From NCBI GenBank assembly GCA_021108335.1, contig JAIORC010000188.1, forward strand, positions 10,240 to 74,239: 64,000 nucleotides of DNA, written 5' to 3'. The position numbers were made by a program, and so were the translations under genes. Each line of letters begins with the position of its first letter. Position 1 is the stretch's first letter. The stretch comes from Phycisphaerae bacterium (GTDB lineage: Bacteria > Planctomycetota > Phycisphaerae > SM23-33). Below the pieces are notes generated by a model that had not been told where the DNA came from, did not search any database, and worked only from the letters and a program-made list of their open reading frames with translations. This document shows positions 2,091-63,994 of this stretch, piece after piece.

Positions 2091-3140
2091 ATGCAAGATA
2101 CGCAAGAATTACAAGAAATCGAGCCGCAGGAACTGCCGGAGAATGTCCTGGAGTTGAGAGACCTCAAGACTTATTTCTTTACCGACGACGGCACGCTGCC
2201 GGCGGTGGACGGCGTTACGTTTAGCGTCAAACGCGGCAAAACCCTGGCCCTTGTGGGCGAGAGCGGCTGCGGCAAGAGCGTTACCAGCTACTCCGTGCTA
2301 CGGCTGATCCAGAAGCCCGGCGAGATTGTCGAAGGCGAAATCCTGCTCCACACCAACGACTATCAAACCATCGATATCGCCCAATTGACCGAAAAGTCCG
2401 ATCTGCTTTTCCACGTTCGCGGCGGACTGGTGAGCATGATTTTTCAAGAGCCGATGACCGCGCTCAGCCCAGTTCACACCATCGGCAACCAGATTTGCGA
2501 GGCCATCCTGCTGCACCAGAACGTTACCAAGGCCCAGGCCGAGGAGATCGCCATCGAGATGCTTCACAAGGTCGGCATCCCCGGCCCGGAGCAGCGGATG
2601 AACCAGTATCCCCACGAGCTTTCCGGCGGCATGCGTCAGCGCGTTGTTATCGCGATGGCCTTGGTGTGCAAGCCTCAGCTATTGATCGCCGACGAGCCGA
2701 CGACTGCGTTGGACGTAACGATCCAGGCCCAGGTGCTGCGGCTGATTAACGACCTCAAGGCCGAACTGGGCACGAGCGTGCTGTTCATCACGCACGACCT
2801 TGGCGTCGTCGCGCAGATTGCCGACGAGGTGGCGGTGATGTACCTCGGCCGCATCGTCGAACAGGGCGACGTCCGCATCGTAATGAAAAATCCGCTGCAC
2901 CCGTATACGCGATGTTTGCTGAAGTCGCTGCCGGGTCTCAGTGGGCACCACAAACGCCTGGATTCCATCGAAGGTTCCGTGCCGAGCTTGACGGAAATTC
3001 CGCCGGGCTGCCCGTTCCACCCGCGTTGTCCAGACTTCGTTGCCGGCGTCTGCGACGTCGGCAACCCGCCGGAACTGCAGGAGTTGCGGGACGGACACTA
3101 TGTTGCCTGCGCGCGGGCCGAGGAGGTCAACCAGAAATGA
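2091..3140 (+). CDS. Oligopeptide ABC transporter ATP-binding protein (OppD-like)
   Basis: Walker A GESGCGKS, ABC signature LSGGMRQR, Walker B LLIADEPTTALD, and an OppD-type C-terminal Cys-rich tail. The ATG at 2091 is preferred over the 2040 ORF start. Confidence 0.85.
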   Translation: MQDTQELQEIEPQELPENVLELRDLKTYFFTDDGTLPAVDGVTFSVKRGKTLALVGESGCGKSVTSYSVLRLIQKPGEIVEGEILLHTNDYQTIDIAQLTEKSDLLFHVRGGLVSMIFQEPMTALSPVHTIGNQICEAILLHQNVTKAQAEEIAIEMLHKVGIPGPEQRMNQYPHELSGGMRQRVVIAMALVCKPQLLIADEPTTALDVTIQAQVLRLINDLKAELGTSVLFITHDLGVVAQIADEVAVMYLGRIVEQGDVRIVMKNPLHPYTRCLLKSLPGLSGHHKRLDSIEGSVPSLTEIPPGCPFHPRCPDFVAGVCDVGNPPELQELRDGHYVACARAEEVNQK

Positions 3141-4141
3141 TTGCCGAACAAACCACACCATTATTGAGCGTCCGAAATCTCAAGAAGCACTTTCCGATTC
3201 ACAACAAGGGCTTCTCCAGCCGCGTGATCGGAAGCGTCAAAGCTGTCGACGATGTGAGCTTCGACCTGCTGCCCGGCGAAACGCTGGGGCTGGTCGGCGA
3301 GAGCGGTTGCGGCAAAACCACCACCGGCAGAACGATTCTGCGGGCGCTGGACCCCACCAGCGGCCAGGTCATGTTCAAGGTGGACGACGACAAGATAATC
3401 GACCTTGCTGCCATTCATCATAAACATCTCAAACCGTTGCGGCCTGAGATGCAGATGATCTTCCAGGATCCGTTTTCGTCGCTGAATCCGCGTATGACCA
3501 TCGGCGACATCGTCGGCGAGCCGTTGGTGGTTCACAAGATGGCCAGGGGCAGCGAGCTGAAAGACCGCGTTGCGGAGATGCTTTTGAAAGTCGGCCTCAT
3601 GCCGGAACACGCCATCCGTTATCCGCACGCATTCAGCGGCGGCCAGCGTCAGCGCGCGGGTATCGCGCGGGCGTTGATTATGAATCCGTCGCTGATAATC
3701 GCCGACGAGGCGGTCTCGGCTTTGGACGTGTCCGTGCAGGCACAGGTAATCAACCTGCTCGAGGATCTTCAGGAAGAATTAAAGCTGACGTACATTTTCA
3801 TCGCCCACGACCTGAGCGTGGTCAAACACATCTGCGACCGGGTAGCCGTGATGTACGCCGGCAAAATCGTCGAACTCTGCGAGACGGAGGAACTTTTCGC
3901 GGTCCCGAAACACCCGTACACCAGGGCGTTGCTGTCGGCTGTGCCCGTGCCCGACCCGGACGTCAAAATGAACTTCGACCTGCACGGCGAGGTTGCCGAC
4001 CCAGCCAATCTCCCGCCCGGCTGCAGCTTCAACCCGCGATGTTCATATTGTCAGGTACGCTGCAAGCAGGACATACCCGAATTACAGGAAATCGCCCCAG
4101 GCCGCCAGGTAGCCTGCCACTTCACAGAAGACCTGGACTAA
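3137..4141 (+). CDS. Oligopeptide ABC transporter ATP-binding protein (OppF-like)
   Basis: ATGA overlap with OppD-like stop. Walker A GESGCGKT, signature FSGGQRQR, Walker [12 protein letters not shown], and a C-terminal CxxC tail. Confidence 0.85.
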
Positions 4142-4200
4142 CGCCGCCGGCAATTAATCAATAGCCCGGCGCGTAATACTGTGCGCGATAAGTAATGCTT

Positions 4201-4230
4201 GGGTGGCATGGTTTGCTTGCAAGCCATGTG
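4201..4230. repeat. REP-like palindromic element (GGGTGGCATGG-hairpin-CCATG family)
   Basis: gggtggcatggtttgcttgcaagccatgtg. The same core recurs at 12.8-13.2 kb, 41144, 59896 and 62921. Confidence 0.6.
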
Positions 4231-4277
4231 TTTTTCGTGTATTCCCAGTACCAGTTTCCTGGTTCCTGTTTTAACCC

Positions 4278-4454
4278 GTTTTGGGTAGGCCGGGTCTTGA
4301 CCCGGCGATAAGAAGGCGACAGCCTTCTTACATGGAAATCCCCTCCGATAACACATCCATGGGAAATGTATTTTTTGCCACGGGTGCCCCGAATTGGACG
4401 AATTTGTTGCATGTGCCATGCAATTGCCGGGTCAAGACCCGGCCTACCCAAAAC
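4278..4454. repeat. MITE-like element with perfect 29-bp terminal inverted repeats
   Basis: gttttgggtaggccgggtcttgacccggc at 4278-4306 is the exact reverse complement of 4426-4454. Each arm also contains an internal hairpin (gccgggtc/gacccggc). Mirrored ORFs 4158-4451(-) and 4281-4493(+) both start MGRPGLDPAI as an artefact. Confidence 0.5.
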
Positions 4455-4583
4455 TGCTTAAACCACACCCAATCCCCCGCCAATTGGAATTGAGCAGCAG
4501 TCCCCAACCCAGTGCAATATAATGCCTAACTCTTTCTCTCTCCAGGACATATAAAAATTTACCCCCTTCCCGCATTTTATGGG

Positions 4584-4611
4584 TTGACACATACCGATTT
4601 TGACTTACAAT
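4584..4611 (+). promoter_or_regulatory. Sigma70-like promoter candidate (TTGACA-16 nt-TACAAT) upstream of the LacI-family gene
   Basis: ttgaca at 4584-4589, a 16-nt spacer, and tacaat at 4606-4611, read directly from the sequence. Confidence 0.4.
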
Positions 4612-4623
4612 GAACGGGTGTGG

Positions 4624-4667
4624 TGAAGTTCATGAAATTCACTATAGGTGTTTGTGAAATTCACGGA
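4624..4667 (+). promoter_or_regulatory. Two palindromic operator-like sites (GTGAA..TTCAC), candidate LacI autoregulatory operators
   Basis: GTGAAgTTCATGAAaTTCAC at 4624-4643 is 18/20 palindromic; tGTGAAATTCACg lies at 4654-4667. Both sit between the promoter candidate and the regulator start. Confidence 0.45.
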
Positions 4668-4677
4668 AGGAAATACT

Positions 4678-5703
4678 GTGGCAGCTACAGTCGTTGACAT
4701 AGCGAAGAAGGCAGCGGTTTCGGTTGGTACTGTTTCGCGAGTACTCAACCATCAGCCCAACATAGACGTCGCACTCAAGCAGCGGGTATTGGGGGCGATG
4801 GAGCAGTTGGATTATCGGCCCAGACGTCTGGCGCGTGGAACAAAGGACGGCTCGAGTAAGAAACAGACCGGCCAGATCGCCATGATGCTTATCAACCTTC
4901 CCGATCATGTAGCGCACACGGCTTACATGATGCAATACATCCACGGCGTTCAGCAAGAGACCGCTGCGGCAGGCCGAAAGTGCCTTTTTGTTACGTGGAA
5001 CGAAGAGTCCGACGGCGATGCGATTCCACCCGTCCTCCTCGACGGGGAAATTGACGGTATAATTGTTAAGCATTTTTTACACAGTGAAATCGTCCAGCAA
5101 TGGTTGAATCGATATCCAAGGGTATTCCTGAATCCCGCGGGCGCTTCGCCGGACTGTGATTGCGTAATGGTCGACTATGAAGAGGGGATCCGCGATTGCG
5201 TCGCGTATCTGGCTTCGTTGGGGCATCGCCGAATCGCGTTCGTGGGCTTGCCGCATTTTCATACCAAGCTTCTGGGTTATCGACGCGCGGTGAAAGAGCT
5301 TGGTCTCGACGTGGACGAGGGGCTGATCCAGACCCGAGACATCTCTCTGGAAGACACCTCGCAGGAACTGGATTTGAATTGGGCGATAGAGAACCTCTGG
5401 TCGCTTTCGGAGCCGCCGACAGCCATCCTCAGCAACGATTACTTCTGCGGCGCGATTTACCATGCCCTGGCCGAACGCGGCCTGAAGGTGCCCGATGACG
5501 TCAGCATCATCGGATATGACAACGAGACGAGCCTCTGCGAGGCGATCAGGCCTAAACTCACGTCGGTGGACATAAAAGCCGTCGAACTCGGCAAAATCGC
5601 CGCCAAACAACTTCTCGACCGGATACAAAACCCGCAGGAAAGTTACCGCAAAATTTCCATTCGAGGCAAAATCGTGGAAAGAGAATCCGTCCGAAAACTA
5701 TAA
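4678..5703 (+). CDS. LacI family transcriptional regulator
   Basis: N-terminal HTH (TVVDIAKKAAVSVGTVSRVLN) followed by a periplasmic-binding-protein-like sugar-binding fold. A GTG at 4678 with an aaggaa RBS is preferred; the GTG at 4648 is the alternative start. Confidence 0.85.
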   Translation: MAATVVDIAKKAAVSVGTVSRVLNHQPNIDVALKQRVLGAMEQLDYRPRRLARGTKDGSSKKQTGQIAMMLINLPDHVAHTAYMMQYIHGVQQETAAAGRKCLFVTWNEESDGDAIPPVLLDGEIDGIIVKHFLHSEIVQQWLNRYPRVFLNPAGASPDCDCVMVDYEEGIRDCVAYLASLGHRRIAFVGLPHFHTKLLGYRRAVKELGLDVDEGLIQTRDISLEDTSQELDLNWAIENLWSLSEPPTAILSNDYFCGAIYHALAERGLKVPDDVSIIGYDNETSLCEAIRPKLTSVDIKAVELGKIAAKQLLDRIQNPQESYRKISIRGKIVERESVRKL

Positions 5704-12783: not shown

Positions 12784-12830
12784 GACGATATCTTACCGCA
12801 TGTTTCGTATGGCAGCCATATCCTCTTTTG

Positions 12831-13206
12831 GGTGGCACAGGTTTGCAACCTGTGCCGTGGTGGCCTGGGAAGGCCACCACGCGAAAGGGTTTATGCAATT
12901 TCCCACGATGTAGGGTGGCATGGTCAGCGGCGATAGCCGATGGCCATGAAAGATAGATACACGATGGCGGATGGTATGTTGGGTGGTTTTGAGAAAAGGA
13001 TGGCGTAGAAATTGTGAATCGATCTTTCATGGCTACCCCGCAAAAAACGCGGGGTTTCCATGCCACCCGATATCGTGGGAAATTGCCCGGTGCCATGCTT
13101 CTGCTTGCAGAAGCATGCGGTCCCAGAAAAAATCCTGGGTGGCATGGCGACACCGCAGGGGTCGCCATGAAGAATCGTGCGGAAACCGCGTGGGTGCAAG
13201 CACCCA
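12831..13206. repeat. Cluster of at least six REP-like palindromic elements (BIME-like array) in the mnmA/yqaA-like intergenic region
   Basis: Hairpins ggcacaggtttgcaacctgtgcc, cgtggtggcctgggaaggccaccacg, ccccgcaaaaaacgcgggg, gcatgcttctgcttgcagaagcatgc, gggtggcatggcgacaccgcaggggtcgccatga and gggtgcaagcaccc. The ORFs called here are translation artefacts of the repeats. Confidence 0.65.
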
Positions 13207-13267
13207 CCCTACAATTACGCGTGCGTTTAATATTGACCTCCATTGGCCAATGCGCTATCGTACCGGC

Positions 13268-14002
13268 ATGGAAAAAGTCAATTGTCCGAAATGTAATCTG
13301 AAAATATCCGTCGAAGCCGCGTTTTGTGAGCATTGCGGGGCGAAAATCGCCAAGCACAAAACCGCTCCGTGGTGGCATGTCCATCGGCACGTCTACGACT
13401 GGACGCTGGCCTGGGCGTACAAGCCCTCCGCCGCCATCGCCCTGTTCGTGCTGAGTTTCGCAGAGAGCAGCTTTTTCCCCGTGCCGCCGGACGTACTGCT
13501 TATGCCCCTGGTTCTCGGCAATCGCAAGAAATGGCTGCGATACGCCACCATTTGCAGCGTCGCCAGCGTGCTTGGTGCGCTGTTCGGTTTTCTCATCGGC
13601 TGGCAGCTCTGGACGCAATTAGGTGTGGACAAATTATTCTTCGATTACGTGCCCGGCTTTTCGCAGGAGACGTTTGATAAAGTCAGTGCGCTGTACAATG
13701 AGTACAATTTCTGGATTGTCTTCACCGCCGGCTTTACGCCGATACCATTCAAGGTGATTACCATCACCGCGGGTGTTTTTGGTACGGGGGCGTCGGTGGA
13801 TAATCCGGGGCTGTTCTTCGCTGTGTTTGTAATCGCCGCGACAGTCAGCCGCTCGGCGAGGTTCTTCCTGGTCAGCGGGCTGATGTGGAAATACGGGCCG
13901 AAGATCACGCCCTTTATCGACAAGTATTTCAATTGGCTGGCGTTGCTGTTTACCGTGCTGCTGATCGGCGGCTTCGTGATAATTAAAATCGTGATGCACT
14001 GA
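13268..14002 (+). CDS. Zinc-ribbon fused to YqaA/DedA(VTT)-like membrane protein
   Basis: N-terminal CPKCN...CEHCG zinc ribbon followed by a multi-TM domain resembling the YqaA family. An alternative start lies at 13250. Confidence 0.55.
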   Translation: MEKVNCPKCNLKISVEAAFCEHCGAKIAKHKTAPWWHVHRHVYDWTLAWAYKPSAAIALFVLSFAESSFFPVPPDVLLMPLVLGNRKKWLRYATICSVASVLGALFGFLIGWQLWTQLGVDKLFFDYVPGFSQETFDKVSALYNEYNFWIVFTAGFTPIPFKVITITAGVFGTGASVDNPGLFFAVFVIAATVSRSARFFLVSGLMWKYGPKITPFIDKYFNWLALLFTVLLIGGFVIIKIVMH

Positions 14003-35961: not shown

Positions 35962-38520
35962 ATGAAATTTTCAAAATCATGTGTGGTGTTGACGTTGGCT
36001 TTCGCGGCTGCGTGTGCGCAGGCGGATCCGAACGTAATTCTTGAGGATGATTTCTCGGGGACGAAGATCAATTCTGCCAAGTGGAAGCTCTACGTTCCGA
36101 AGGGGACAGGCGGTTTCATCAGAATTGAAGACGGCGTACTGCATGTTTTGTCATGTGACAGATCGGCATTTTTCACTACGAAAAAAGAGATTCCGTCAGG
36201 ACATATCCTGGAGTTCGACTACTTTCAGCCTTCGAAAGAGCGAAAGGGCAGCTACCAGAATCATGTGTTGTATAGTGCGACCAGAGACGCAAAGGGGCGG
36301 AAGTGTCGCAACACCGTGTGGTACGTTGAGCAATCCGGGTGTTTGTTCAGTCATCACAACGGCCTGCGAGACAAGCGGGGAGCGATTGGGAATTTTCCTC
36401 CATCGCGTGATAAGTGGTATCGGGTTCGAGTATTGAACCAGGCCCGGAGCACTACGATTATTGTACGCGACCGGAAGACCGGCAAGCTTTGCAGCCGGGC
36501 CACTTTTTCCCACGATCCGGTGTCGTCGGGTCGAATACAGTTTGTTGGGGGGGCATACAACAAAGGCAGCCGCCTGGGCTTCAAGCTCGACAATGTGCGA
36601 ATTCTCAGCAAAACGCCCGTTCTCGGCAAAGCCCCGACGCCGCTGGTACCGCCGGGAAATTTCGAGACGCCGGCGAACTGGAAGCCGCTCGATATCGCAG
36701 GAAGGAATTTCTGGCATTTGGCTTACTATAAGCCCCATGCGTGGAAGCTTTGGGGAATGAGCAAGCATCCGCTGTTTGCCGAAGCGGCGTGGCTGCACGC
36801 TCCGACCGACGAAAAAGCGATCAGCGCCACGCCTCGGCCTTTTACGATGAGGCCGGCAAGAACGAAGGCCGGTCGCGAGCGGCAGGTGAAAATTGTAAAG
36901 GCCGCCGGAGATAAGTTCCTCGGATTTTATCCGCCGATGAATGAGTGGGGCGATGTCTACCTTCGCCGCGGCCGGCTTGGCAAAGCGACCAGCCGCGATG
37001 ACGGACTTGCACGAATTAAGCGGATGTATATCAAACGTGCGGATACGGCGCCGGTCAAACGCGCGACCTTTTCGCTTATGAATTACCGGCTTTTCCATCA
37101 TCACGCCCTCGAGTGGGGATCACGCTCGGTGACAGCCGAAATCGGCGAAACCGTTCCGTGTACCAACCTTCAGATTGCATGTACGCGCGGTGCGGCGCGC
37201 GAGTACGGCCGCCCGTGGGGCATCGATCTTTCCTCGTGGCTTTACGGAAAGATGACCCATTACGTGTACACGCCTGACTTCATATCCAGCCCGTGCTCGT
37301 TGTACAGCGGTCATTCCGTATCGCTCCACAAAAGATTCTGCTACGCCTCCTGGCTGGCTGGCGCTAACTATATCTGGTACGAGAACGAAGCTGTGCTGGC
37401 GATGAATGAAAACGACATCCGCCAGGTGATCGGTTGCCAGCCGGACAAGAAATACGATCGCTGGGTGCTCTCGCCGGTTGGCGAGATAGCGCAGAAGCTC
37501 TTTGCTCTCGCGAAAATCAAAGATCGCGGAACCCCTTACACGCCGGTGGCGTTGATGATCGATTTCGCCCATGGCTGGTCGCCGCTGGGCTGTACGCCGC
37601 ACAAGATATGGGCCAATCTGCCGCTGGCCAAGGGCGACCACATGCTCGACGAGTTCTTCAATACGATTTACCCGTGGAACCCGGCCCGCGACTATAGCGA
37701 GCCTGGCGCGCGCAAGCCAGGCAGGAACGGCGAGCAGGGCTTCCTGACGCCAACTCCCTATGGCGATATCTTCGACGTGTTCACGAACAAGTCATGCCGC
37801 ACCCTGGCTGGCTATCGCGTATTGATGATGGTGGGCGACGTGCGGATCGACAAGGCCCTGGCGGCAAAACTTATAGCATACGTCAAAAATGGCGGCACAC
37901 TCGTTATCAACGCGAAGCAGCTCGGGGCGCATTTGCCGGCGAAGTTCCTCGGCGCTAAGCTGACGGGGCAAAGCGGCACGGCGAAGTCGGCTTTGTGCAA
38001 GCTCGACGGCAAAAAGCTTGCCGGGGCGGCATTCAGCTACGCCAAGGTGGAATTGACAACCGCCAAGCCGCTCGTTACAGCCGATGGCGGCAAAGACGCG
38101 CTGGCTTGCATTAACGAGGTCGGCAAGGGCAGAGTAGTTCTCACGACACCGCCTTATCTTCTCAACAAGAAGAATCGTGCGGTGCCCATGTTGAAGCACC
38201 TGTTGAAACATCTCACCAGCGGCCTGCTGCCGGTTCGCGTCAGCGAAGGCGACGGCCTGGAGTATACGGTCAACCGCACCGCCAAGGGCTGGGTTGTGGG
38301 GCTTATTAACAATAAGGGTATTTACAAGCAGCCGACCGGCCCGCCGACAATCAGGCCCGAAGAGGAAATAGCAGTAATGGTGCGTCTGGATGGTGTGGCG
38401 ACGAAGGCTACCGAATGGATCACCGGCAAGAAGCTGAAAATGAAAACCACGAAAAAAAGTACAACCGTCAGGCTGGTCGTCCCAGCCGGCGACGTACGAA
38501 TTATTGAATTGGAGAAATAA
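35962..38520 (+). CDS. Family B paralog 1: ConA/LamG-like N-module fused to the same central domain - GH42M-like - beta-sandwich core
   Basis: Signal peptide. N-module ILEDDFSGTKINSAKWKLYVP... is a jelly-roll lectin/glucanase-like fold. The central RGAAREYGRPWGIDLS and SGHSVSLHKRFCYASWLAGANYIWYE align with family A RGAARQYDKPWRTYLA and CGTSLSLQKRQIFGAYMSGTNIFRDE. C-terminus ...VPAGDVRIIELEK. Confidence 0.6.
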   Translation: MKFSKSCVVLTLAFAAACAQADPNVILEDDFSGTKINSAKWKLYVPKGTGGFIRIEDGVLHVLSCDRSAFFTTKKEIPSGHILEFDYFQPSKERKGSYQNHVLYSATRDAKGRKCRNTVWYVEQSGCLFSHHNGLRDKRGAIGNFPPSRDKWYRVRVLNQARSTTIIVRDRKTGKLCSRATFSHDPVSSGRIQFVGGAYNKGSRLGFKLDNVRILSKTPVLGKAPTPLVPPGNFETPANWKPLDIAGRNFWHLAYYKPHAWKLWGMSKHPLFAEAAWLHAPTDEKAISATPRPFTMRPARTKAGRERQVKIVKAAGDKFLGFYPPMNEWGDVYLRRGRLGKATSRDDGLARIKRMYIKRADTAPVKRATFSLMNYRLFHHHALEWGSRSVTAEIGETVPCTNLQIACTRGAAREYGRPWGIDLSSWLYGKMTHYVYTPDFISSPCSLYSGHSVSLHKRFCYASWLAGANYIWYENEAVLAMNENDIRQVIGCQPDKKYDRWVLSPVGEIAQKLFALAKIKDRGTPYTPVALMIDFAHGWSPLGCTPHKIWANLPLAKGDHMLDEFFNTIYPWNPARDYSEPGARKPGRNGEQGFLTPTPYGDIFDVFTNKSCRTLAGYRVLMMVGDVRIDKALAAKLIAYVKNGGTLVINAKQLGAHLPAKFLGAKLTGQSGTAKSALCKLDGKKLAGAAFSYAKVELTTAKPLVTADGGKDALACINEVGKGRVVLTTPPYLLNKKNRAVPMLKHLLKHLTSGLLPVRVSEGDGLEYTVNRTAKGWVVGLINNKGIYKQPTGPPTIRPEEEIAVMVRLDGVATKATEWITGKKLKMKTTKKSTTVRLVVPAGDVRIIELEK

Positions 38521-38521
38521 C

Positions 38522-41080
38522 ATGCGTGCAACACTCAAAATTACTTTATGCCTGTTTTTACTGATGGCCTTCTGCGCGAAGTCCCTGGCTTCGCCCAAGG
38601 TAATTCTCGAGGACGATTTCTCGGGAACGAAGATCAATTCTCGCAAGTGGACGGTACGCGTTCCCAAGACGAAGGGCAGTTTCGCCAAAATTGAAAACGG
38701 CGTGCTGCATGTTCTTGCCTGCGACAAAGAGGCATCGATAGCTACGCGGCCGGCAATACCGGCTGCTCACATATTGGAGTTTGATTACCTGCAGCCGTCG
38801 ACAGAGATGCGTGGCGGCTACCAGAACAACATATCGTTTCAGACGATAAAAAGGCAACCGGGGCGGTGGGGTGGCGTGTTATGGTATATCGAGAGATCCG
38901 GCGTTACATACAGTCTGTGCGGCGGAATGTGGGGCAGGAAGGAAACACTTGGCAAGAAATTCCCGGTGATAAACAACAAGTGGTATCGGGTTCAGATATA
39001 CAATTTCATGGGAAGCACCATGATTGTTCTGCGCGATAAGGCTACAGGCAAGATCGAAAGCAAAACTGTTTTTCAACATGATCCCTCGTCGGATGGGCGC
39101 ATATTTTTCAAGGCGGCATCGACCAGAAAAGGAAGTCGCTGGGGATTCAAACTCGATAACGTGCGGATTACTTCAGGAGGTGGGACTCTCGATAAAGCAC
39201 CTGCCGCGCTGTTGCCTGCGCAAAAGCCGCGAGTCGGTAAAAGCTGGCAGCCCATGATGCTTGCAGGCAGGAGTTTCTGGCATCTCGCCTACTACAATCC
39301 TGTTCAATGGAAGGCCTGGGGCATGAGCGACCTGCCGCTTTTCGCGGAATCGGCATGGATGGCTGCGCCGCAGGATGCGGAGCTGCTTGGCCAGGGTAAG
39401 AGACCTTACACGCTGAAACCCAGAGGCAAAAACGCCGCAAGCATCGCGAAAAACGCCGGCAACGAGTTTTTGGGCTTCTATCCGACTCTGAATGAATGGG
39501 GCGATGTTCTTCTCAGGTCTGGGCCATGGAAAAAAATGAAGATCAAATCCAGGTACGAGGGGGTTGCGGCGCTGGAACAAATGTACAAAAAGAGAGCCGC
39601 GTCCGCACCGGTAAGCAAGGATATTTTTTCGTGGGTAGGCTACAAGCCTTTCAATCATCAGGCATGTGAGTGGGGCGCGCGAGCGCTGATCGTCGAAACC
39701 GGAGAAACGATCCCCTGCACCAATCTCCAGATTGCATTCATACGTGGAGCGGCAAGGGAATACGGCAAACCCTGGGGCGTGGATATTTCCGCATGGTTGT
39801 TCGGCGCCATGACCAACTACGTTCCGGTACAGGATTTCGTCACGGCACGCTCTGGCCCGTTTTCCGGTCATTCGGTATCTTTTCATAAGAGGATGTCGTA
39901 TGTGTCCTGGCTCACCGGGGCAAACTACCTCCTGTACGAAGAGCGCAGGGCTTTGGCAGTCAACGAAAACGATGTACGCCAGGTATATGGATACGCCCGC
40001 GACAAGGCCCACGACCGCTGGATACTTTCGCCGATCGGCGACGTGGCAAGCAAGCTGTTCAAACTTGCCGCAGTGAAAGATCGAGGCACACCTTACACGC
40101 CGGTAGCCGTCATGGTCGATTTCGCCCACGGCTGGTCGCCGGTAGGCTGTTCGGCGCACAAGATATGGGCAAAGCTTCCCTATACCAGTGGCGACCAGAT
40201 GATAAATGAGTTCTTTAACACGATCTTTCCCTGGAACCCCGACCGCAACTACAGCGTGCAAGGTGCTCGAAAGCCGGGGCGCACCGAGCAGGGATTCCTC
40301 ACGTCAACTCCCTACGGCGACATCTTCGACGTGTTCACGAACAAGTCATACCGCACGATAGACGAATATCGTGTATTGATGATGGTGGGTGATGTGCGGA
40401 TCGACAAAGCCCTGGCGGCGAAGCTTATGGAGTACGTCAAAAGTGGCGGGGCGCTGGTTATCAACGCGAAGCAACTCGGGGCACATCTGCCGGCGGAGTT
40501 TGTCGGTGCTAAGCTGACGGGGCAAAGCGGCACAGCCAAGGCTGCCCTGTGCAAACTTGACGGCAAGAAGCTCGCCGGCTCGGCATTCAGCTACGCCAAG
40601 GTGGAATTGACAACCGCCAAGCCGATTATTACAGCCGATGGTAGCGGCGACGTGCTGGCCTGCATTAACGAGGTCGGCAAGGGCAGAGTTGTTCTCACGA
40701 CGCCACCTTATTTTCTCGACAAGAAGAACCGTGTACTGCCCATGCTAGGGCATCTGTTGAAACACCTCACCAGCGGCCTGCTGCCGGTGCGCGTCAGCAA
40801 GGGTGTGGAGTATACGGTCAACCGCACGCAGGACGGCTGGGTTGTGGGACTGATCAACAACAAGGGCATCTACAAATCGCCGACCGGTCCGCCGAAAATC
40901 AAGCCCGAAGAAGAAATAGCCGTAATGGTGCGTCTCGACGGTGTTGCAACGCAGGCTACCGAATGGCTCACCGGCAAGAAGCTGAAAATGAAAACCATGA
41001 AAAATACCACAACGGTTACGCTTTCCGTCCCAGTCGGCGACGTTCGGATTGTTGAGTTCCGTACCCGACAGGAAGATTAA
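38522..41080 (+). CDS. Family B paralog 2
   Basis: About 65% identical to 35962-38520 throughout, with RBS ggagaaataac ATG. The 38504 ORF start is a TTG artefact upstream. Confidence 0.6.
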   Translation: MRATLKITLCLFLLMAFCAKSLASPKVILEDDFSGTKINSRKWTVRVPKTKGSFAKIENGVLHVLACDKEASIATRPAIPAAHILEFDYLQPSTEMRGGYQNNISFQTIKRQPGRWGGVLWYIERSGVTYSLCGGMWGRKETLGKKFPVINNKWYRVQIYNFMGSTMIVLRDKATGKIESKTVFQHDPSSDGRIFFKAASTRKGSRWGFKLDNVRITSGGGTLDKAPAALLPAQKPRVGKSWQPMMLAGRSFWHLAYYNPVQWKAWGMSDLPLFAESAWMAAPQDAELLGQGKRPYTLKPRGKNAASIAKNAGNEFLGFYPTLNEWGDVLLRSGPWKKMKIKSRYEGVAALEQMYKKRAASAPVSKDIFSWVGYKPFNHQACEWGARALIVETGETIPCTNLQIAFIRGAAREYGKPWGVDISAWLFGAMTNYVPVQDFVTARSGPFSGHSVSFHKRMSYVSWLTGANYLLYEERRALAVNENDVRQVYGYARDKAHDRWILSPIGDVASKLFKLAAVKDRGTPYTPVAVMVDFAHGWSPVGCSAHKIWAKLPYTSGDQMINEFFNTIFPWNPDRNYSVQGARKPGRTEQGFLTSTPYGDIFDVFTNKSYRTIDEYRVLMMVGDVRIDKALAAKLMEYVKSGGALVINAKQLGAHLPAEFVGAKLTGQSGTAKAALCKLDGKKLAGSAFSYAKVELTTAKPIITADGSGDVLACINEVGKGRVVLTTPPYFLDKKNRVLPMLGHLLKHLTSGLLPVRVSKGVEYTVNRTQDGWVVGLINNKGIYKSPTGPPKIKPEEEIAVMVRLDGVATQATEWLTGKKLKMKTMKNTTTVTLSVPVGDVRIVEFRTRQED

Positions 41081-41082
41081 TA

Positions 41083-41243
41083 CCGGGCGCACAAAATTAG
41101 TGCGATCGCGAGTAAAATGTCTAATGACTAAAAAAACACGCTGGGTGGCATGGCGACACCGCAGGGGTCGCCATGAGGGATGGCGTAGGAATTGCGTGGT
41201 GGCCTTGTTACCTCGTCTGGCGCACTAACTTTGTGCGCCCGGT
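41083..41243. repeat. MITE-like element: REP-like hairpin flanked by 23-bp inverted repeats
   Basis: accgggcgcacaaaattagtgcg at 41083-41105 versus cgcactaactttgtgcgcccggt at 41221-41243 (22/23 complementary). Inside lies gggtggcatggcgacaccgcaggggtcgccatga (41144-41177), identical to the copy at 13135-13170. Confidence 0.5.
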
Positions 41244-41323
41244 ATAATAGCATGCGGCAGAGTAGACACGCTGCCGACAGGAAAGGGCAAATTGTTTTGT
41301 GCATCCTAAAAAAGGTGAATTTA

Positions 41324-44263
41324 ATGCGCTGGAAATTATTGGTTTTGACGGGCTTTATGGCGATGTTTTTCGTTGGCGCCTCGGTTGCGGACGCCGCGGA
41401 GGACAAGCCGGTTTTGTGCATACGCAAAACGCCCCGCCCGCCGGTAATTGACGGGAAGCTGGACAAGGGCGAATGGGCCGGCCGCGGCGAAATTCCCCTG
41501 GTTCGCCTGCACAGCGGAAAGGGTAACGCGTCGCAGCCGGCCAAGGCTTTTGTTACTTATGACGATAAGAACCTGTATTTCGGCGTGCGTTGCGCCGAGT
41601 CGAACATCGGCAAAATAAAAGCCAATGTCAAGGAGCACAACGGCGATATCTGGTATGACGACGATATTGAAGTATTTATCGATACGAATCACGATAAGAT
41701 CAGCTATCACCAATATGCCGTCAATTCCATCGGCACGCAGTGGGACCGCGATTCGTCGAAAAAGGGAGCCTGGAAAGCGGCGGCGAAGGTGTATGCCGAT
41801 CACTGGGTCGTGGAGATAGCCATACCTTTTACCGTACTCGGGATAACGCCGGACGACGGTCTGGTTTGTGGATTTAATCTCACCCGTACGCGGCCTGGTA
41901 AGCCGACTGAGGTAAGCACCTGGTCTCCCCAGAAAGGGTCGATTCACGCCCCGGCGCGCTTCGGCTATCTGGTTTTCGGTACTCTCAAGGCTGCCGCCGA
42001 CCGTAAGGGGAAGCTGCTCCGGGCACAGTTGGACGCGCTGACTGGGGAGACAACCGCAAAGGCCGCTTTGCTTAAGCAGGTTAAAGCGATGGAGAATTTG
42101 GTTCGGAAGGGCGAGAGTTTCAAAGTGGCCCGATATCAGGCTATTCGCAAATCGGCGGCGGCGATTGAAAAGAAGATTGAGGCACTGGCGCGAGCGGAGC
42201 TGGTCGCGAAATTAACTGCCGGAGATACGGGAAAGAAACACCTTCTGACTTCCGCCGCTGCGCGAAGCGGTTATGACGTGCCGGGCAACTGGCGGATGCG
42301 AAAAATTCTGGGCAAGGAATTCTGGCATGATATTTCATATCACAGGATGCCAATGTTCAAGCAGGCAGGCCTCGCGGACGAGCCGTTTATAAAAAACGCG
42401 ATGCCGGCGATTCGCACCCGGGGCAGTGCAACTTTCGAGCGTGTTTTTTTTGATCCCAAATCCGCGACTCGAAAAATGCTGAAAAGTACCGGCAAGCCGT
42501 TTTGCGTAGCATCTGCCGGCGGCAGCTTCGCCCTCGGCCTTGAGCCTTCGGTATGCCGCAGATTCATCAAGGAGTACGGCAAGCAGTTCGCCGGTTTCGT
42601 TGCGGACGAATGCTTCGGGCATGATGCCCGGAAAAAATGGCCTCGCATGAATCTCCCCATGCCGAAAACCCGGCACGAAGCGTTTCTGGGATTTGCCGCG
42701 CAATTTCTGGAGCGCCGGAGGGTGGCTTTCCACAATTGGGCGCTTTGCTACGTGGAATTCCGGCCTTGGGCGATATGCACGTTCTCCACACCCCTCGATC
42801 ATTATGCGCTCGAACTCGGCCCGATCAAGATGGCCGGCACGGAAATCGGTGGGCATATGAAAAGCATGGCCATGATTTTTGCTTTCTCGCGGGGAGCCTC
42901 GCGTCAATACGATAAGCCCTGGCGGATGTATCTCGCCGTCTTTGGGCCGGGTGTTATCTCGGATTCGACACAGGGCTATCGCGTTCTGTCGCCGCGGTGC
43001 CGCAACGCGGCCCCCACCTCTTTCTGGGATACCGGGCCGAATAGCGGCACTTCTTTGTCGCTGCAAAAACGGCAGATACTGTCTGCGTATATGTCCGGGA
43101 TGAATATGTTCCACGACGAGGGCGACAGCGATTGCGGTTCGCTTTACGTCGCCAATTACGACTATCGGAAAATTGACAGCGTCGACGACCTTGTGATCGT
43201 ATTGCGGGACACGCCGCATTGCCTGTCGCCGGCGGGAGCAATCCGCAAGGAGTTCCATGACAATATTGTCAATACGCGCGACCGCGGCGTAATTTATACG
43301 CCGGTAGCCCTGATTTTCGACCGCTTTCACGGATACATGCCCAAGCACTATCAGGATCGGATTCTGGGAGTGATTCCGTACAAAGAGGCTGACTACATGA
43401 TGCGGGCGGTCAATCAGACGCTGTTTCCGTGGGAGCATCGCTCCGGCGAGCAGCAGGCGATGGTTACCGGCCCGTTCGGCGACATGTTCGACGTTTTGAC
43501 CAACAACGCTGAGAGCGAAGTGCTGAGTACTTACGGGGCGGCGATGCTTGTCGGCAATGTCGAGATGAACGGGTATTTCGTGCAAAGGCTCATCAAGTAC
43601 GTCGAGAACGGCGGAACGCTGATTATCAACGCCAGGCAGATCAACGGTAGATTGCCGGAAAAATTTCTCGGCTGCAAAGTAACGAAAAAACGAGGCCGGG
43701 GCAAAATAGCGTTCAGTAACCTTGATAAGTCGGTAATCGTCGAACGCAAGCCCTTCAACTTCCAATACCTCAAGCCGACAACCGCGACGACGCTTGTTTC
43801 TCTGGTCGAGGGCAACAAGAAAACCGTGCCGTTGGTGTTGTCGAACAAGTACGGCAAAGGCAGAGTGATCGTTACCGCGCCGGATTATCTTAAGGAATCC
43901 GGCAGCAAAACGCAGATGCTGAAATTGTTCAGCCATCTCATGCGGCGGCTCAACTCCGAATTGCTGCCGGTGGCGGTGGAAGGAAATGTTGAGTATATCG
44001 TCAATCGCAACAAGAGCGGCTGGGTGGTAACGCTCATCAATAACGAAGGTGTGTACAAACCACCTGGCCAAAAACCAATCGTCAAATCCGAGGAAAACGT
44101 GGTCGCGAAAGTTATTCTGAAGCGTAACGCCGCGGCGAAAGTCTCGAAAGTCAGCGAGTGGCTCACCGGCAAAGAGCTGAAACTCGCCGAAACCCCGCAG
44201 GGCATGGAAGTAACCCTCACCGTCCCAGCCGGCGATGTGCGGATTATCGAATTCGCACAATGA
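41324..44263 (+). CDS. Family A paralog 3
   Basis: True start MRWKLLVLTGFMAMFFVGASVADA, in frame with the longer 41192 ORF. CBM9-like PPVIDGKLDKGEW and a C-terminus ending IIEFAQ. Confidence 0.6.
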   Translation: MRWKLLVLTGFMAMFFVGASVADAAEDKPVLCIRKTPRPPVIDGKLDKGEWAGRGEIPLVRLHSGKGNASQPAKAFVTYDDKNLYFGVRCAESNIGKIKANVKEHNGDIWYDDDIEVFIDTNHDKISYHQYAVNSIGTQWDRDSSKKGAWKAAAKVYADHWVVEIAIPFTVLGITPDDGLVCGFNLTRTRPGKPTEVSTWSPQKGSIHAPARFGYLVFGTLKAAADRKGKLLRAQLDALTGETTAKAALLKQVKAMENLVRKGESFKVARYQAIRKSAAAIEKKIEALARAELVAKLTAGDTGKKHLLTSAAARSGYDVPGNWRMRKILGKEFWHDISYHRMPMFKQAGLADEPFIKNAMPAIRTRGSATFERVFFDPKSATRKMLKSTGKPFCVASAGGSFALGLEPSVCRRFIKEYGKQFAGFVADECFGHDARKKWPRMNLPMPKTRHEAFLGFAAQFLERRRVAFHNWALCYVEFRPWAICTFSTPLDHYALELGPIKMAGTEIGGHMKSMAMIFAFSRGASRQYDKPWRMYLAVFGPGVISDSTQGYRVLSPRCRNAAPTSFWDTGPNSGTSLSLQKRQILSAYMSGMNMFHDEGDSDCGSLYVANYDYRKIDSVDDLVIVLRDTPHCLSPAGAIRKEFHDNIVNTRDRGVIYTPVALIFDRFHGYMPKHYQDRILGVIPYKEADYMMRAVNQTLFPWEHRSGEQQAMVTGPFGDMFDVLTNNAESEVLSTYGAAMLVGNVEMNGYFVQRLIKYVENGGTLIINARQINGRLPEKFLGCKVTKKRGRGKIAFSNLDKSVIVERKPFNFQYLKPTTATTLVSLVEGNKKTVPLVLSNKYGKGRVIVTAPDYLKESGSKTQMLKLFSHLMRRLNSELLPVAVEGNVEYIVNRNKSGWVVTLINNEGVYKPPGQKPIVKSEENVVAKVILKRNAAAKVSKVSEWLTGKELKLAETPQGMEVTLTVPAGDVRIIEFAQ

Positions 44264-59125: not shown

Positions 59126-59346
59126 AAGGAATGCAGTTGCCGCTCTACTGAAGCATCAGCTAGTATTCCGTCCCGTAAAAATTGATGGGTGCCGTGGCGG
59201 GAGCGAAGCGACAGCCACGACGTAACTATTGCGAGAAAGCCCTTTGGGGGCGTCCAGCAATTTAACAGGGACGCGGCACTAGGCTGGCTTGGATAATGGG
59301 AACCGAATCCATCATTTTGCGTCAAAGAAGTGAAGGAGATTTGGTC

Positions 59347-59895: not shown

Positions 59896-59933
59896 CCAGT
59901 GCCGTGCTTCTGCAAGCAGAAGCACGGCACTGG
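59896..59933. terminator. Perfect 18-bp-stem REP-like hairpin between convergent genes, candidate bidirectional terminator
   Basis: ccagtgccgtgcttctgc-aa-gcagaagcacggcactgg followed by gcatttttt on the + strand. Same family as the 13094-13119 hairpin. Confidence 0.5.
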
Positions 59934-61312: not shown

Positions 61313-63994
61313 TTAATGGAGTCTGCCGACGAGGTTGCGGTAGTCGATTTTTCCCGTGCCGAGCAGCGGCAGTTCGTCGATGGCGATTACGCGGCGGATG
61401 TTGTGCAGGCCGCTCATGCCGGCGGCGCGGATTGCCTGGTTTGCGGCGGCGCGATCAATCGGCCCGACGGCGAACATCACGACCTCAGGCCGTTCTTCGT
61501 CCGGCGTCGCCACCACCGCCAGGGGCGGCCTGTCGTCATCCTCCCGGTGAAATCGCTCCGCCAGGACAGCCTCGATCGCCGGAAGCGAAATCATCTCGCC
61601 GCCGAGCTTGACGAACCGTTTGAGCCGGCCGCTGAATGTCAACACGCCCTCGGCGTCCTGCCTCATAAGGTCGCCGGTGCAATACCAGCTCCGCCCGTCG
61701 AGCTCCACGAACGGCGACGGCCCGTCGTAATCCAGATATCCGCCAAATACGCTAGGCCCGCGAACCAGCAACATGCCCTCGCCGCCAGGTTCGACCCGCC
61801 CCCGCAATTCGGGATCCACCAGCACATACTCCAGCGAACCCATCACCCTGCCGATGGTGCTGGCGTGAGCGTCGGATTCGTGGTTGACGGAGATCATCGG
61901 CGAGCATTCGGTTACGCCGTATCCTTCCAGTACGGTGGTCTGCGGGCACTGCCGGGCCAGTGTGTCGTAGAGGCGAGCGGGGCATTTTTCTCCGCCGCTG
62001 ACCACCAGCCGCAATGACTCAAGCTGCCGCGACTCCGACGCCCGCAGTATGCCGCTGAGGAACGTCGGCGTGCCGCCCAGAATCGTCGCCTTGTACAGAT
62101 CGATCATCCGCCCCACCACCATGCCGTCGGTGGGATTTGGGTGATGCACCACGCGGACGCCCAGCACCAGCGGCAGCAGCGTTGTTACGGTCAGGCCGAA
62201 CGAATGGAATGGCGGCAGGATGCCCAATATGCTGTCGTGGCGGCTTACGGTGAAGCAGTCGTAGGCGTCGCGGATATTCGCCAGAATGTTCCGGTGGCTC
62301 AGCGGTACTGCCTTGGGCGTACTCTCCGACCCGCTGGTGAACAGAATGACTGCTGTCTTTGTTGCGCGAGACGCCGCAGCCCGCAAACTCCCCCAGCCTA
62401 GCCGGTAAAATCGCGATTTGACGAACGCCTGCAGCTTTTCCAGCCGTCCGAGATTTGCGACGATGTCCTCGATATAAACGAACCGCTCCGCCAGCCCGCC
62501 CAGATCGACCCCTTGGGCAGTCAGTCGCGTAACCAGCGCCCTGGCGGTGAGAATCCGCTGCGTACCACTGGACTTGAGGCAGTGCTCCAGGTTCCGCGGG
62601 CCTAGCGTCCAGTTGATCATCGCGGGGGTCTTGCCGGCGAATTGTGTCGCCAGAAACAAAACATCCGCCGCCACCGATGCCGGCATCATAATGCCCACGA
62701 CCTCGCCGGCCAGCGCCCGGATGTGCCGCCGGAGAATCATAATGCTCGTTACCATGTCGCGATATGTTTTGACCCCGCCGGCTTGGTCGGCGGCGATTAC
62801 CTCGCCGGGCCGGCGACCGGCCTGATACAAAAATGCCTCCGGGATATTCATATCCTCCAGCCCCGGCGGACACGGCAGAGTGGCACAATCCTTTGAGAGC
62901 CGTGTGTTTTTCACTGCGCTGGGTGGCATGGCTTGCTTGCAAGCCATGTGTTTCCCCGTATGGCTAAACCACTTTGGCGATACCGGCTTGAGGTTCACCG
63001 CCGCAGCCGAGATCGATTCGCCGCAGGCAGCGAGCATCACGTCGCCGACCGTCTGTATCGCTGTGATGTCGTTCTGCGTAAAGCCGAACTCCGCGCCCAG
63101 CCAGGCCAGCAGCTCCATGCCCGCCAGCGAGTCCATCCCCAAGTCATTGGCCAGCCGCGACGTATCGTCGAAGTCGGCCCGGCCGATCAACTCCGCTAGA
63201 TACTCTCGCACTTGCCGCCGCGTCGCCTGCGGGACAGCCGCGGCATCCCCGGAAATCCGTGGCGGGGTCGGTTCGGGCAGTTCCCGCGTGCCGCCGCGCT
63301 CCCAAATCGTAAGCGGCACGAAGGTGTTTTTAAGTGCGTCGGTGTTGTAGCGGGATTCGAGGTAGCGATTTATTTCCTGCCGGCTGCCCTGGCGGGGCAG
63401 GTCGTCCGGCTCGACAAGTTCGAGCGTAATCTCGCGGCGTGGTGTGAAAAAAAGTCCATTCCGTAGCAGTGCCCAAGCCCCCTGTTTCAGCACAGGCCCG
63501 ACACCTGGTTCCGTGCCGCCGGCCCAACTGAAGCGGCTGCCCCAAAGCCCGCGCGTGCGAACCAGCACTACCCGAACGTCCGGCAATTCGCGGAGAATCG
63601 TCTCCACACCGCTGCCGGCCCGCAGGTCTTCCAATCGCGTTCGCTGCAATTGCCCCGACGGATACAGCACGATATTGTCGCCGCTGCGCAACGCCTCGAC
63701 GCATTGGCCGATGACCGCCCGCACCGCATCCGACGACGTTCCGATTTCCGTCAGGTCGTCGATGGGCAGCACGCGACACCGCCGGGCCAGCGAGCGGATG
63801 AAGAAGCGGTCGATCTGGTTGCGGTCAGCCAGCGCCCGCACCTCGAAAGGCCCGAACAGCCGCGACAGGACAATCACCGGATCGATCAGGGCAGGGTGAT
63901 TCGGCAGGAACAGAATCCCCCGGCTGCCCTTTCCCAGCACCTCAGCCAGCCCGCGGACGCGAATGCGATATCGCAGCCATAGCGCGAATTTCAC
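61313..63994 (-). CDS. Tri-domain Aas-like protein: PlsC-type lysophospholipid acyltransferase - acyl carrier protein - acyl-AMP/acyl-ACP synthetase
   Basis: N-terminal LPLAT motif LPNHPALIDP (HxxxxD); mid ACP motif LGMDSLAGMELLAWL (DSL phosphopantetheine site); C-terminal AMP-binding ILFTSGSESTPKAV, GYGVTE and GDL...GR..R. The N-terminus abuts the window end. Confidence 0.8.
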   Translation of the reverse strand: MKFALWLRYRIRVRGLAEVLGKGSRGILFLPNHPALIDPVIVLSRLFGPFEVRALADRNQIDRFFIRSLARRCRVLPIDDLTEIGTSSDAVRAVIGQCVEALRSGDNIVLYPSGQLQRTRLEDLRAGSGVETILRELPDVRVVLVRTRGLWGSRFSWAGGTEPGVGPVLKQGAWALLRNGLFFTPRREITLELVEPDDLPRQGSRQEINRYLESRYNTDALKNTFVPLTIWERGGTRELPEPTPPRISGDAAAVPQATRRQVREYLAELIGRADFDDTSRLANDLGMDSLAGMELLAWLGAEFGFTQNDITAIQTVGDVMLAACGESISAAAVNLKPVSPKWFSHTGKHMACKQAMPPSAVKNTRLSKDCATLPCPPGLEDMNIPEAFLYQAGRRPGEVIAADQAGGVKTYRDMVTSIMILRRHIRALAGEVVGIMMPASVAADVLFLATQFAGKTPAMINWTLGPRNLEHCLKSSGTQRILTARALVTRLTAQGVDLGGLAERFVYIEDIVANLGRLEKLQAFVKSRFYRLGWGSLRAAASRATKTAVILFTSGSESTPKAVPLSHRNILANIRDAYDCFTVSRHDSILGILPPFHSFGLTVTTLLPLVLGVRVVHHPNPTDGMVVGRMIDLYKATILGGTPTFLSGILRASESRQLESLRLVVSGGEKCPARLYDTLARQCPQTTVLEGYGVTECSPMISVNHESDAHASTIGRVMGSLEYVLVDPELRGRVEPGGEGMLLVRGPSVFGGYLDYDGPSPFVELDGRSWYCTGDLMRQDAEGVLTFSGRLKRFVKLGGEMISLPAIEAVLAERFHREDDDRPPLAVVATPDEERPEVVMFAVGPIDRAAANQAIRAAGMSGLHNIRRVIAIDELPLLGTGKIDYRNLVGRLH
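62921..62950. repeat. REP-like palindrome embedded in frame inside the Aas-like CDS (ACP/ligase interdomain linker)
   Basis: gggtggcatggcttgcttgcaagccatgtg is a perfect palindrome, translated on the minus strand as ...GKHMACKQAMPP... The same peptide string appears in the artefactual ORF over the 4201 copy. Confidence 0.6.

Follow-up and report, generated by a model that had tools for sequence, protein, structure and literature searches.

In this study, a 177-bp palindromic element (element 1, positions 4278-4454) was analyzed in a 64,000-nt stretch of DNA from a Phycisphaerae bacterium (contig JAIORC010000188.1; the whole stretch is referred to as the window). Element 1 is most probably a long-spacer head-head (HH) doublet of a GTAG-tagged repetitive extragenic palindrome (REP), resembling the REP doublets forming hairpins (REPINs) and belonging to a non-autonomous Planctomycetota/Phycisphaerae family. 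A first-pass annotation, made from the letters alone, had seen in it either a miniature inverted-repeat transposable element (MITE) or a large regulatory stem-loop. Its description of a 177-bp element with perfect 29-bp inverted repeats, an AT-richer 119-bp interior and an own hairpin in each terminal repeat was reproduced with all coordinates, while its interpretations were retained only in part.

The two arms of element 1, 4278-4306 (GTTTTGGGTAGGCCGGGTCTTGACCCGGC) and 4426-4454, are perfectly reverse-complementary and enclose 119 nt; a repeat search extended them further outward and inward at a lower identity (Table 1). The G+C content was 46% in the interior and 66% in the arms, compared with 54% over the whole window. 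From the outside inward, each arm is made up of an extension of 7 nt, the GTAG tag and the palindrome GCCGGGTC-TT-GACCCGGC; the 22-mer of tag and palindrome, GTAGGCCGGGTCTTGACCCGGC, carrying a GTAG tag and a hairpin with an 8-bp stem and a TT loop, was named REP-A. The 23-mer core of the arm occurred at two places only in the window, namely the two arms of element 1 (≤3 mismatches; 0 expected from shuffled sequences). The single-stranded DNA (ssDNA) of 4267-4465 folded at -61 kcal/mol, compared with -25.6 ± 3.0 kcal/mol for shuffled sequences (z = -11.7). Because the intergenic gap 4142-4677 was identical, with zero differences, in an independent assembly of the same strain (L097, ENA ERZ26872896 NODE_178; 99.73% identity over 15,703 nt without gaps), element 1 is not an assembly artefact, and this comparison shows that it is stable in the strain and not mis-assembled.

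Two other candidate identities were tried and rejected. A small open reading frame (ORF) in the spacer was discarded, as the spacers of the window and of a second copy (locus L055, see below) differ by two offsetting 1-nt indels and share no conserved frame. The ends of an integron attC site have the order RYYYAAC...GTTRRRY; the GTTTTGG and CCAAAAC ends of element 1 stand in the wrong order and there is no cassette context, so an attC site was rejected from the sequence.

The anatomy of element 1 was then compared with that of known repeats. GTAG REPs, which have already been reported in Planctomycetes, are palindromes of 20-40 bp with an unpaired GTAG tag, stems of 6-9 bp and very short TY loops; two of them with the tags outside form an HH dimer, whose spacer usually measures 20-100 bp and may be edged by a stem-loop on either side (Di Nocera, De Gregorio & Rocco 2013, PMC3733652). 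Element 1 agrees with this class, which includes the E. coli REPs and bacterial interspersed mosaic elements (BIMEs): in both arms, an unpaired GTAG at the 5' end of the 22-nt unit precedes a palindrome whose 8-bp stem is closed by a TT loop of 2 nt. REP-A was assigned to the class, of which 24 families have been published (PMC3733652), by the definition above. Also similar to the published dimers, the tags of element 1 are outside and both ends of its spacer form stem-loops (h1 and h2), and similar to published REPs it lies in a cluster that mixes REP classes, flanked by genes that run in one direction and following a coding region; however, its 119-nt spacer is just above the usual range. 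As in REPINs (Bertels & Rainey 2011, PMC3116915), the inverted REPs and their spacer fold into one long hairpin (the ssDNA fold given above). In contrast, the start-to-start spacing of 141 nt in element 1 exceeds the 71 and 110 nt of the REPINs of P. fluorescens SBW25, as well as the 45-47 nt of most members of the REP-A family itself.

In related genomes, REP-A is a dispersed, multi-copy repeat. A scan of GTDB species-representative genomes with the 20-mer TAGGCCGGGTCTTGACCCGG returned 43 exact loci, about 33 of them on more than 20 contigs of one Planctomycetota metagenome-assembled genome (MAG), CSMAG_1807 (DAOVZK01); the remaining loci were in Thermoguttaceae, Phycisphaerae, Planctomyces, Pirellulales and Planctomycetaceae MAGs, with a few isolated matches in other phyla. 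In a metagenome scan, the exact 22-mer was present on 50 further contigs. When all collected loci were searched with ≤4 mismatches, 185 REP-A units were counted, which in these loci, chosen for carrying REP-A, were arranged as about 60 true HH dimers (74 calls by the script minus 14 self-overlaps of single palindromes), 35 singlets, 4 head-tail pairs and 1 tail-tail pair. Doublets outnumber singlets among these REP-selected loci, and may do so in the family at large, as they do for REPINs. The spacer of the doublets had its mode at 23-25 nt, with a minority of 84, 89, 119, 166, 178, 178 and 199 nt. Further, CSMAG_1807 carries REP-A doublets with a conserved AT-rich spacer of ~180 nt in at least 7 copies of 73-98% identity (L022 5562-5784, L026 6125-6346, and L032, L006, L013, L018 and L008), suggesting that long-spacer doublets propagate as units.

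The 119-nt-spacer type itself recurred outside the source organism. Locus L055 (JGI Ga0255448_1100) holds a copy collinear with window 4200-4454, comprising the GTGG-tagged REP-B hairpin (Table 1) with its T-run, the REP-A doublet and the 119-nt spacer, between unrelated genes (a UbiA-like prenyltransferase, an epimerase and a GT2 glycosyltransferase, as read from ORF translations with no family search). Its REP-A cores matched those of the window at 22/22 positions on both sides and its spacer at 104/119; conservation is higher in the arms than in the spacer, as in REPINs. L055 is devoid of a 21-22-nt segment that separates the GTGG hairpin from the doublet in the window. A partial copy, with the hairpin, one REP-A and ~75 nt from the start of the spacer, was found in L094 between scpB and a CBM48 gene, so that the composite was seen in three gene contexts. 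The homology of the window with both L055 and L094 begins at the REP-B hairpin, and pairing was kept by compensatory changes, from G-C to A-T in h1 between the window and L094 (AAGAAGGC/GCCTTCTT to AAGAAGAC/GTCTTCTT) and in the GTGG hairpin of L055 (CATGGTTTGC/GCAAGCCATG to CACGGCTTGC/GCAAGCCGTG). On L061, L074 and L068, short REP-A doublets likewise have a GTGG-type hairpin immediately on their 5' side.

The association of the GTGG hairpin with REP-A could reflect either co-mobilization or a preferred insertion site. Unlike in REPINs, the repeated unit seems to include this extra GTGG-tagged hairpin on one side, and a tentative reading, which we consider unlikely, takes the whole ~235-258-bp composite (4201-4454) as the unit, with the GTGG terminator-like hairpin, the GTAG REP doublet and the 119-nt segment as a structured non-coding 'cargo'. 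If true, the composite would be a long REPIN by which a small structured RNA or a portable terminator/insulator is carried from operon to operon in Phycisphaerae, and the ~180-nt-spacer family of CSMAG_1807 would be a second example.

A cognate transposase was identified at the REP-A loci. Two apparent doublet spacers, of 584 and 608 nt, are genes, and the former (L012, 2731-3270) encodes a 179-aa protein that scored 177.6 bits on the NCBIfam equivalog NF047646, 'REP-associated tyrosine transposase' (RAYT; cut-off 80), and 24.1 bits on Pfam Y1_Tnp. It matched E. coli TnpA(REP) (PDB 4ER8) with E = 2e-35, with alignment of the HUH motif (LPDHLHTVW / LPEHMHCIW) and of the tyrosine motif YxxNPVKHG (YIHYNPVKHG / YIYINPVKHG). 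The L012 RAYT, which NCBI assigns to a MAG of the class Phycisphaerae, to which the window also belongs, is bounded by exact REP-A units in inverted orientation, with two more units either side. Metagenome contigs L090 and L065, whose RAYTs are 84% and 57% identical to it, have the same REP-A flanking, that is, the arrangement of a REPtron, in which a RAYT is flanked by its own REP class. Moreover, a second RAYT of CSMAG_1807 (L041, 2190-2915; 42% identity) is flanked by another GTAG REP, GTAGGGTCGGCCATTGCCGAC, indicating that the pairing of REP and RAYT is class-specific, as for REPtrons (PMC3733652). In these relatives the pairing thus follows that of the known REPIN/RAYT system (PDB 4ER8, PMC3479197).

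E. coli TnpA(REP) requires a 5' GTAG and a hairpin for ssDNA binding and for cleavage at a CT dinucleotide (PMC3479197), and the case has been made for REP doublets as the unit of replication (PMC3116915). Drawing on this E. coli work and on that on the REPINs of P. fluorescens, the following mechanism is proposed. A cognate HUH/Y1 RAYT, encoded elsewhere in the source genome, would bind and nick the ssDNA hairpin with its 5' GTAG; the inverted REP pair and its spacer would then be copied as one unit to new intergenic sites without target-site duplication. Element 1 would have landed in the gap between the terminator of an ABC operon and the promoter of a LacI-family gene, together with or beside the GTGG hairpin. 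The source genome would accordingly be expected to carry the RAYT that moved this copy.

The distribution and the transposase also bear on the MITE interpretation, by which element 1 would be a deletion derivative of an insertion sequence with a DDE transposase, bounded by 29-bp terminal inverted repeats and a target-site duplication. Element 1 does resemble MITEs in being short, non-coding, non-autonomous and bounded by (perfect, 29-nt) inverted repeats, in its small AT-richer interior, and in its dispersal into other gene contexts. However, no direct repeat flanks it, either in the window (flanks AACCC / TGCTT) or in L055 (GCCC / AGTG). The first-pass annotation had proposed to look for such a target-site duplication; its absence is expected for IS200/IS605-type chemistry. 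The arms are a 22-nt hairpin unit that mostly occurs in 66-70-bp doublets or as singletons and not at the ends of longer elements, and the only genes bounded by them in ~700 kb of collected loci were HUH/Y1 RAYTs, with no DDE transposase among them. Unlike MITEs, element 1 has self-folding REP arms, and its transposase would be an HUH tyrosine enzyme acting on single-stranded hairpins. A classical MITE is therefore considered very improbable: of the proposed transposable element, the dispersed non-autonomous family and the cognate transposase (flanked by REP-A on L012, L090 and L065) were borne out, while the MITE with terminal inverted repeats was not.

Element 1 lies in a 536-nt gap between an ABC-transporter ATPase gene and a LacI-family gene (Table 1). 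The REP-B hairpin with its T-run (4206-4229; to 4236 with GTTTTTC) scored as intrinsic-terminator-like after the ATPase gene, and by its sequence it looks like the terminator of the upstream ABC operon as well as a part of the repeated composite. The sole good promoter-like site in the gap was at 4584-4611, 130 nt downstream of the 119-nt segment, and comparable TTGACA promoters precede the LacI orthologues in L094, L095 and L096. The REP-A doublet is thus placed after the terminator-like hairpin and before the LacI promoter, a position more in keeping with a selfish insertion that is tolerated than with a regulatory RNA, and where the doublet may be little transcribed. Element 1 is probably neutral at its site; any effect on the neighboring genes would at most be that of an added strong 3' stem-loop or insulator.

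An inverton was weighed at this locus, in which a recombinase would flip the 119-nt segment and so control the LacI gene or the downstream glycan-utilization genes. The inverted repeats of 29-43 nt around an interior of ~120 nt have a typical inverton size, and the site is intergenic, upstream of a regulator and of glycan genes. However, the promoter scan found no promoter-like site inside the 119-nt spacer, with the LacI promoter lying downstream of it, and a single orientation relative to the REP-B hairpin was observed in the window, L097, L055 and L094. In addition, no recombinase was among the genes called within ±10 kb, and the repeat that forms the arms is, in relatives, spread genome-wide and paired with a transposase of its own. 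An invertible switch is thus extremely improbable.

A further explanation is a host-selected RNA or DNA structure, e.g. a 3' mRNA stabilizer, a terminator/insulator or a protein-binding site, whose function would explain the conservation. The RNA fold is very stable (z = -9.5 for 4190-4470), the compensatory changes keep the h1 and REP-B hairpins paired between copies, the REP-B hairpin with its T-run resembles an intrinsic terminator, and E. coli REPs are known to have such secondary roles (PMC3479197, PMC3733652). However, Rfam gave no match for the whole window at gathering thresholds and none for 4100-4700 even at E ≤ 1, the orthologous sites of relatives do not share the structure, and its position between terminator-like hairpin and promoter leaves it perhaps little transcribed. 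A host-selected function, quite improbable as the explanation of element 1, would be compatible with a REP origin instead of being an alternative to it, and is required by none of the results. The large regulatory stem-loop of the first-pass annotation, as a locus-specific RNA, was consequently not supported, since the structure has no Rfam match and recurs in unrelated gene contexts.

The orthologous loci were consistent with insertion of the REP doublet. The LacI orthologues in L094, L095 and L096 (77%, 72% and 80% identity, respectively) are not preceded by element 1. The downstream synteny is kept in L094 and L095, with Laminin_G_3, N_methyl and heparinase II/III-like genes, while the L096 contig, of 1,566 bp, is too short for this comparison; in L096 a doublet of the element 3 family (see below) occupies the site upstream of LacI instead. 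As judged from these sequences, element 1 is not ancestral at the LacI locus. The first-pass annotation had reasoned that a lack of further copies, together with conservation in situ, would speak for an RNA structure; in fact copies exist, and the element is missing at the three orthologous sites. Its proposed comparison with empty sites in relatives was answered in part, since the upstream genes differ in L094 and L095 and what was observed is therefore absence in situ and not a clean empty site.

Several observations weigh against the identification of element 1 as a mobile REP-A doublet. The ratio of doublets to singlets is biased by the choice of loci for REP-A. In the source organism, there is one REP-A doublet (2 units) in the 64-kb window, or in 69 kb when L097 is included, and a RAYT was not detected in the window (tblastn with the L012 RAYT, best E-value 0.16). 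The 119-nt spacer is far from the modal 23-25 nt of REP-A, and this spacer type is complete at one other locus only, L055, in a different organism. No clean empty site was found, as the upstream gene differs in L094 and L095, L096 is too short and the synteny breaks at the gap. Finally, mobilization of REPINs by RAYTs is itself inferred in the literature and has not been reconstituted.

Two side observations concern the gap around element 1. A direct repeat, GTTCATGAAATTCAC / GTTTGTGAAATTCAC, its copies 22 nt apart (4628-4664), lies between the LacI promoter and the LacI start (4678), and is a candidate operator for LacI autoregulation. In addition, a low-complexity AAAACAGGAACCAGGAAACTGG-like motif was noticed by eye on opposite strands at 4244-4277 and at L094 5728-5800, upstream of the 77% LacI orthologue; the 21-22 nt absent from the L055 composite overlap the former, and the motif may be another repeat or ancestral spacer.

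Table 1. Positions of element 1, its neighboring features and the other palindromic repeats in the window
Feature	Position	Strand	Description
ABC transporter ATPase gene	3137..4141	+	Pfam ABC_tran + oligo_HPY; gene call in L097
REP-B hairpin	4201..4239	+	GGGTGG-CATGGTTTGC-TT-GCAAGCCATG, then GTTTTTC; GTGG-tagged
Full inverted repeat	4267..4465	.	arms 4267-4309 / 4423-4465, 43 nt, 91%; head-head REP doublet, REPIN-like
Left arm	4278..4306	+	GTTTTGG extension, GTAG 4285-4288, palindrome 4289-4306; unit REP-A
Spacer	4307..4425	.	119 nt, non-coding, stem-loop at either end (fold)
Spacer stem-loop h1	4309-4330		TAAGAAGGC-GACA-GCCTTCTTA (fold)
Spacer stem-loop h2	4407-4423		TTGCATG-TGC-CATGCAA (fold)
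Right arm	4426..4454	-	REP-A core 4426-4447 + outer extension CCAAAAC
Predicted sigma-70-like LacI promoter	4584..4611	+	TTGACA-16-TACAAT; outside and downstream of element 1
LacI-family regulator gene	4678..5703	+	product 100% identical to NCBI MCD4824560.1 (Phycisphaerae MAG)
Element 3	12895..13086	.	arms 12895-12923 / 13058-13086, 29 nt, 93%; 134-nt spacer with nested hairpins
Element 2	41080..41245	.	arms ATACCGGGCGCACAAAATTAGTGCG (41080-41104) / CGCACTAACTTTGTGCGCCCGGTAT (41221-41245), 25 nt, 24/25 complementary, 116 nt between
GTGG-tagged hairpins	4203-4228, 12832-12855, 13139-13169, 41145-41175, 62923-62948		form (T)GGGTGGCAYRG + stem
Palindromic repeat class GGGTGCCGTGGCGGGAGCGAAGCGACAGCCACGAC	59187-59220		also in L055, L094
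Palindromic repeat class GGTGCCATGCTTCTGCTTGCAGAAGCATG	13089-13117, 59905-59931		also in L072, L041, L007
Palindromic repeat class GTAGGGTGGGTGCTTGCACCCACGC (minus strand)	13188-13212		another GTAG REP

The window contains further elements of this kind. The second inverted-repeat element of the first-pass annotation (element 2) was recovered with slightly longer arms (Table 1) and a fold z of -7.2, and so was the REP-like hairpin inside it: this GTGG-tagged REP-B unit (41143-41176, 34 nt) is identical to 13137-13170 and to L096 81-114. Element 2 had been called unrelated to element 1, which holds for its arms, as no further copy of them was found in the window (≤3 mismatches) or among the 97 collected loci, and does not hold for its interior, which belongs to the REP class that also stands beside element 1. 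It lies between two large paralogous genes, the downstream one with a CBM9 domain. The gap without element 2 would measure ~77 nt, similar to the other gaps in the paralogue array (47-147 nt), which suggests that element 2 is an insertion. Its boundaries can be drawn as TAA/TACCGGG...CCCGGTA/TAA (41078-41080 and 41245-41247), where the left TAA is the stop codon of the upstream gene; this is a possible but weak 3-bp target duplication, too short to be significant and dependent on a free choice of boundary, which would suit a MITE for element 2 only. As to the array itself, 29860-56595 holds five to seven paralogous ~3-kb genes that are 60-93% identical in DNA blocks; the paralogue at 41324-44263 is the one with the CBM9 domain, and that at 38504-41080 had no Pfam match.

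Element 3, absent from the list of the first-pass annotation, had a fold z of -10.2 and is an HH doublet of GTGG-tagged REP-B-type units with arms GCAATTTCCCACGAT(G/A)T(A/C)GGGTGGCATGG, extended AATTTCCCACGAT...GGGTGGCATGG. A second copy of this family at L096 18-125, upstream of the 80%-identical LacI orthologue, indicates that element 3 belongs to a second REPIN-like family. Both differences from L097 at element 3 (13063 and 13071) are in its right arm. A GTGG variant of the tag has been described for Opitutus terrae (PMC3733652). In the window, GGGTGGCATGG occurred 6 times vs. 1.3 expected, and several of the GTGG hairpins are followed by a T-run and resemble intrinsic terminators. The scan for GTAG/GTGG plus stem gave ~3 matches in shuffled sequences at its loosest setting and was used for strong long-stem matches only; around 62923, the greedy ORF call of a long minus-strand ORF (61313-63994) may be wrong. 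A BIME-like mosaic structure is seen in the gaps 4142-4677, 12785-13268 and 41081-41323.

Element 1 is thus real but ordinary and brings no conceptual surprise: the 177-bp palindrome now falls into a known class, and labels such as MITE, riboswitch or inverton should be avoided in its annotation. One REP-RAYT pair is documented in relatives, with a 22-nt unit that is identical across distant Planctomycetota lineages, and three intergenic gaps of the window are mosaics of at least 4-5 palindromic repeat classes. These repeats are of use in the annotation and assembly of Phycisphaerae MAGs, where they break contigs, and as a marker for studies of REPIN populations outside Proteobacteria.

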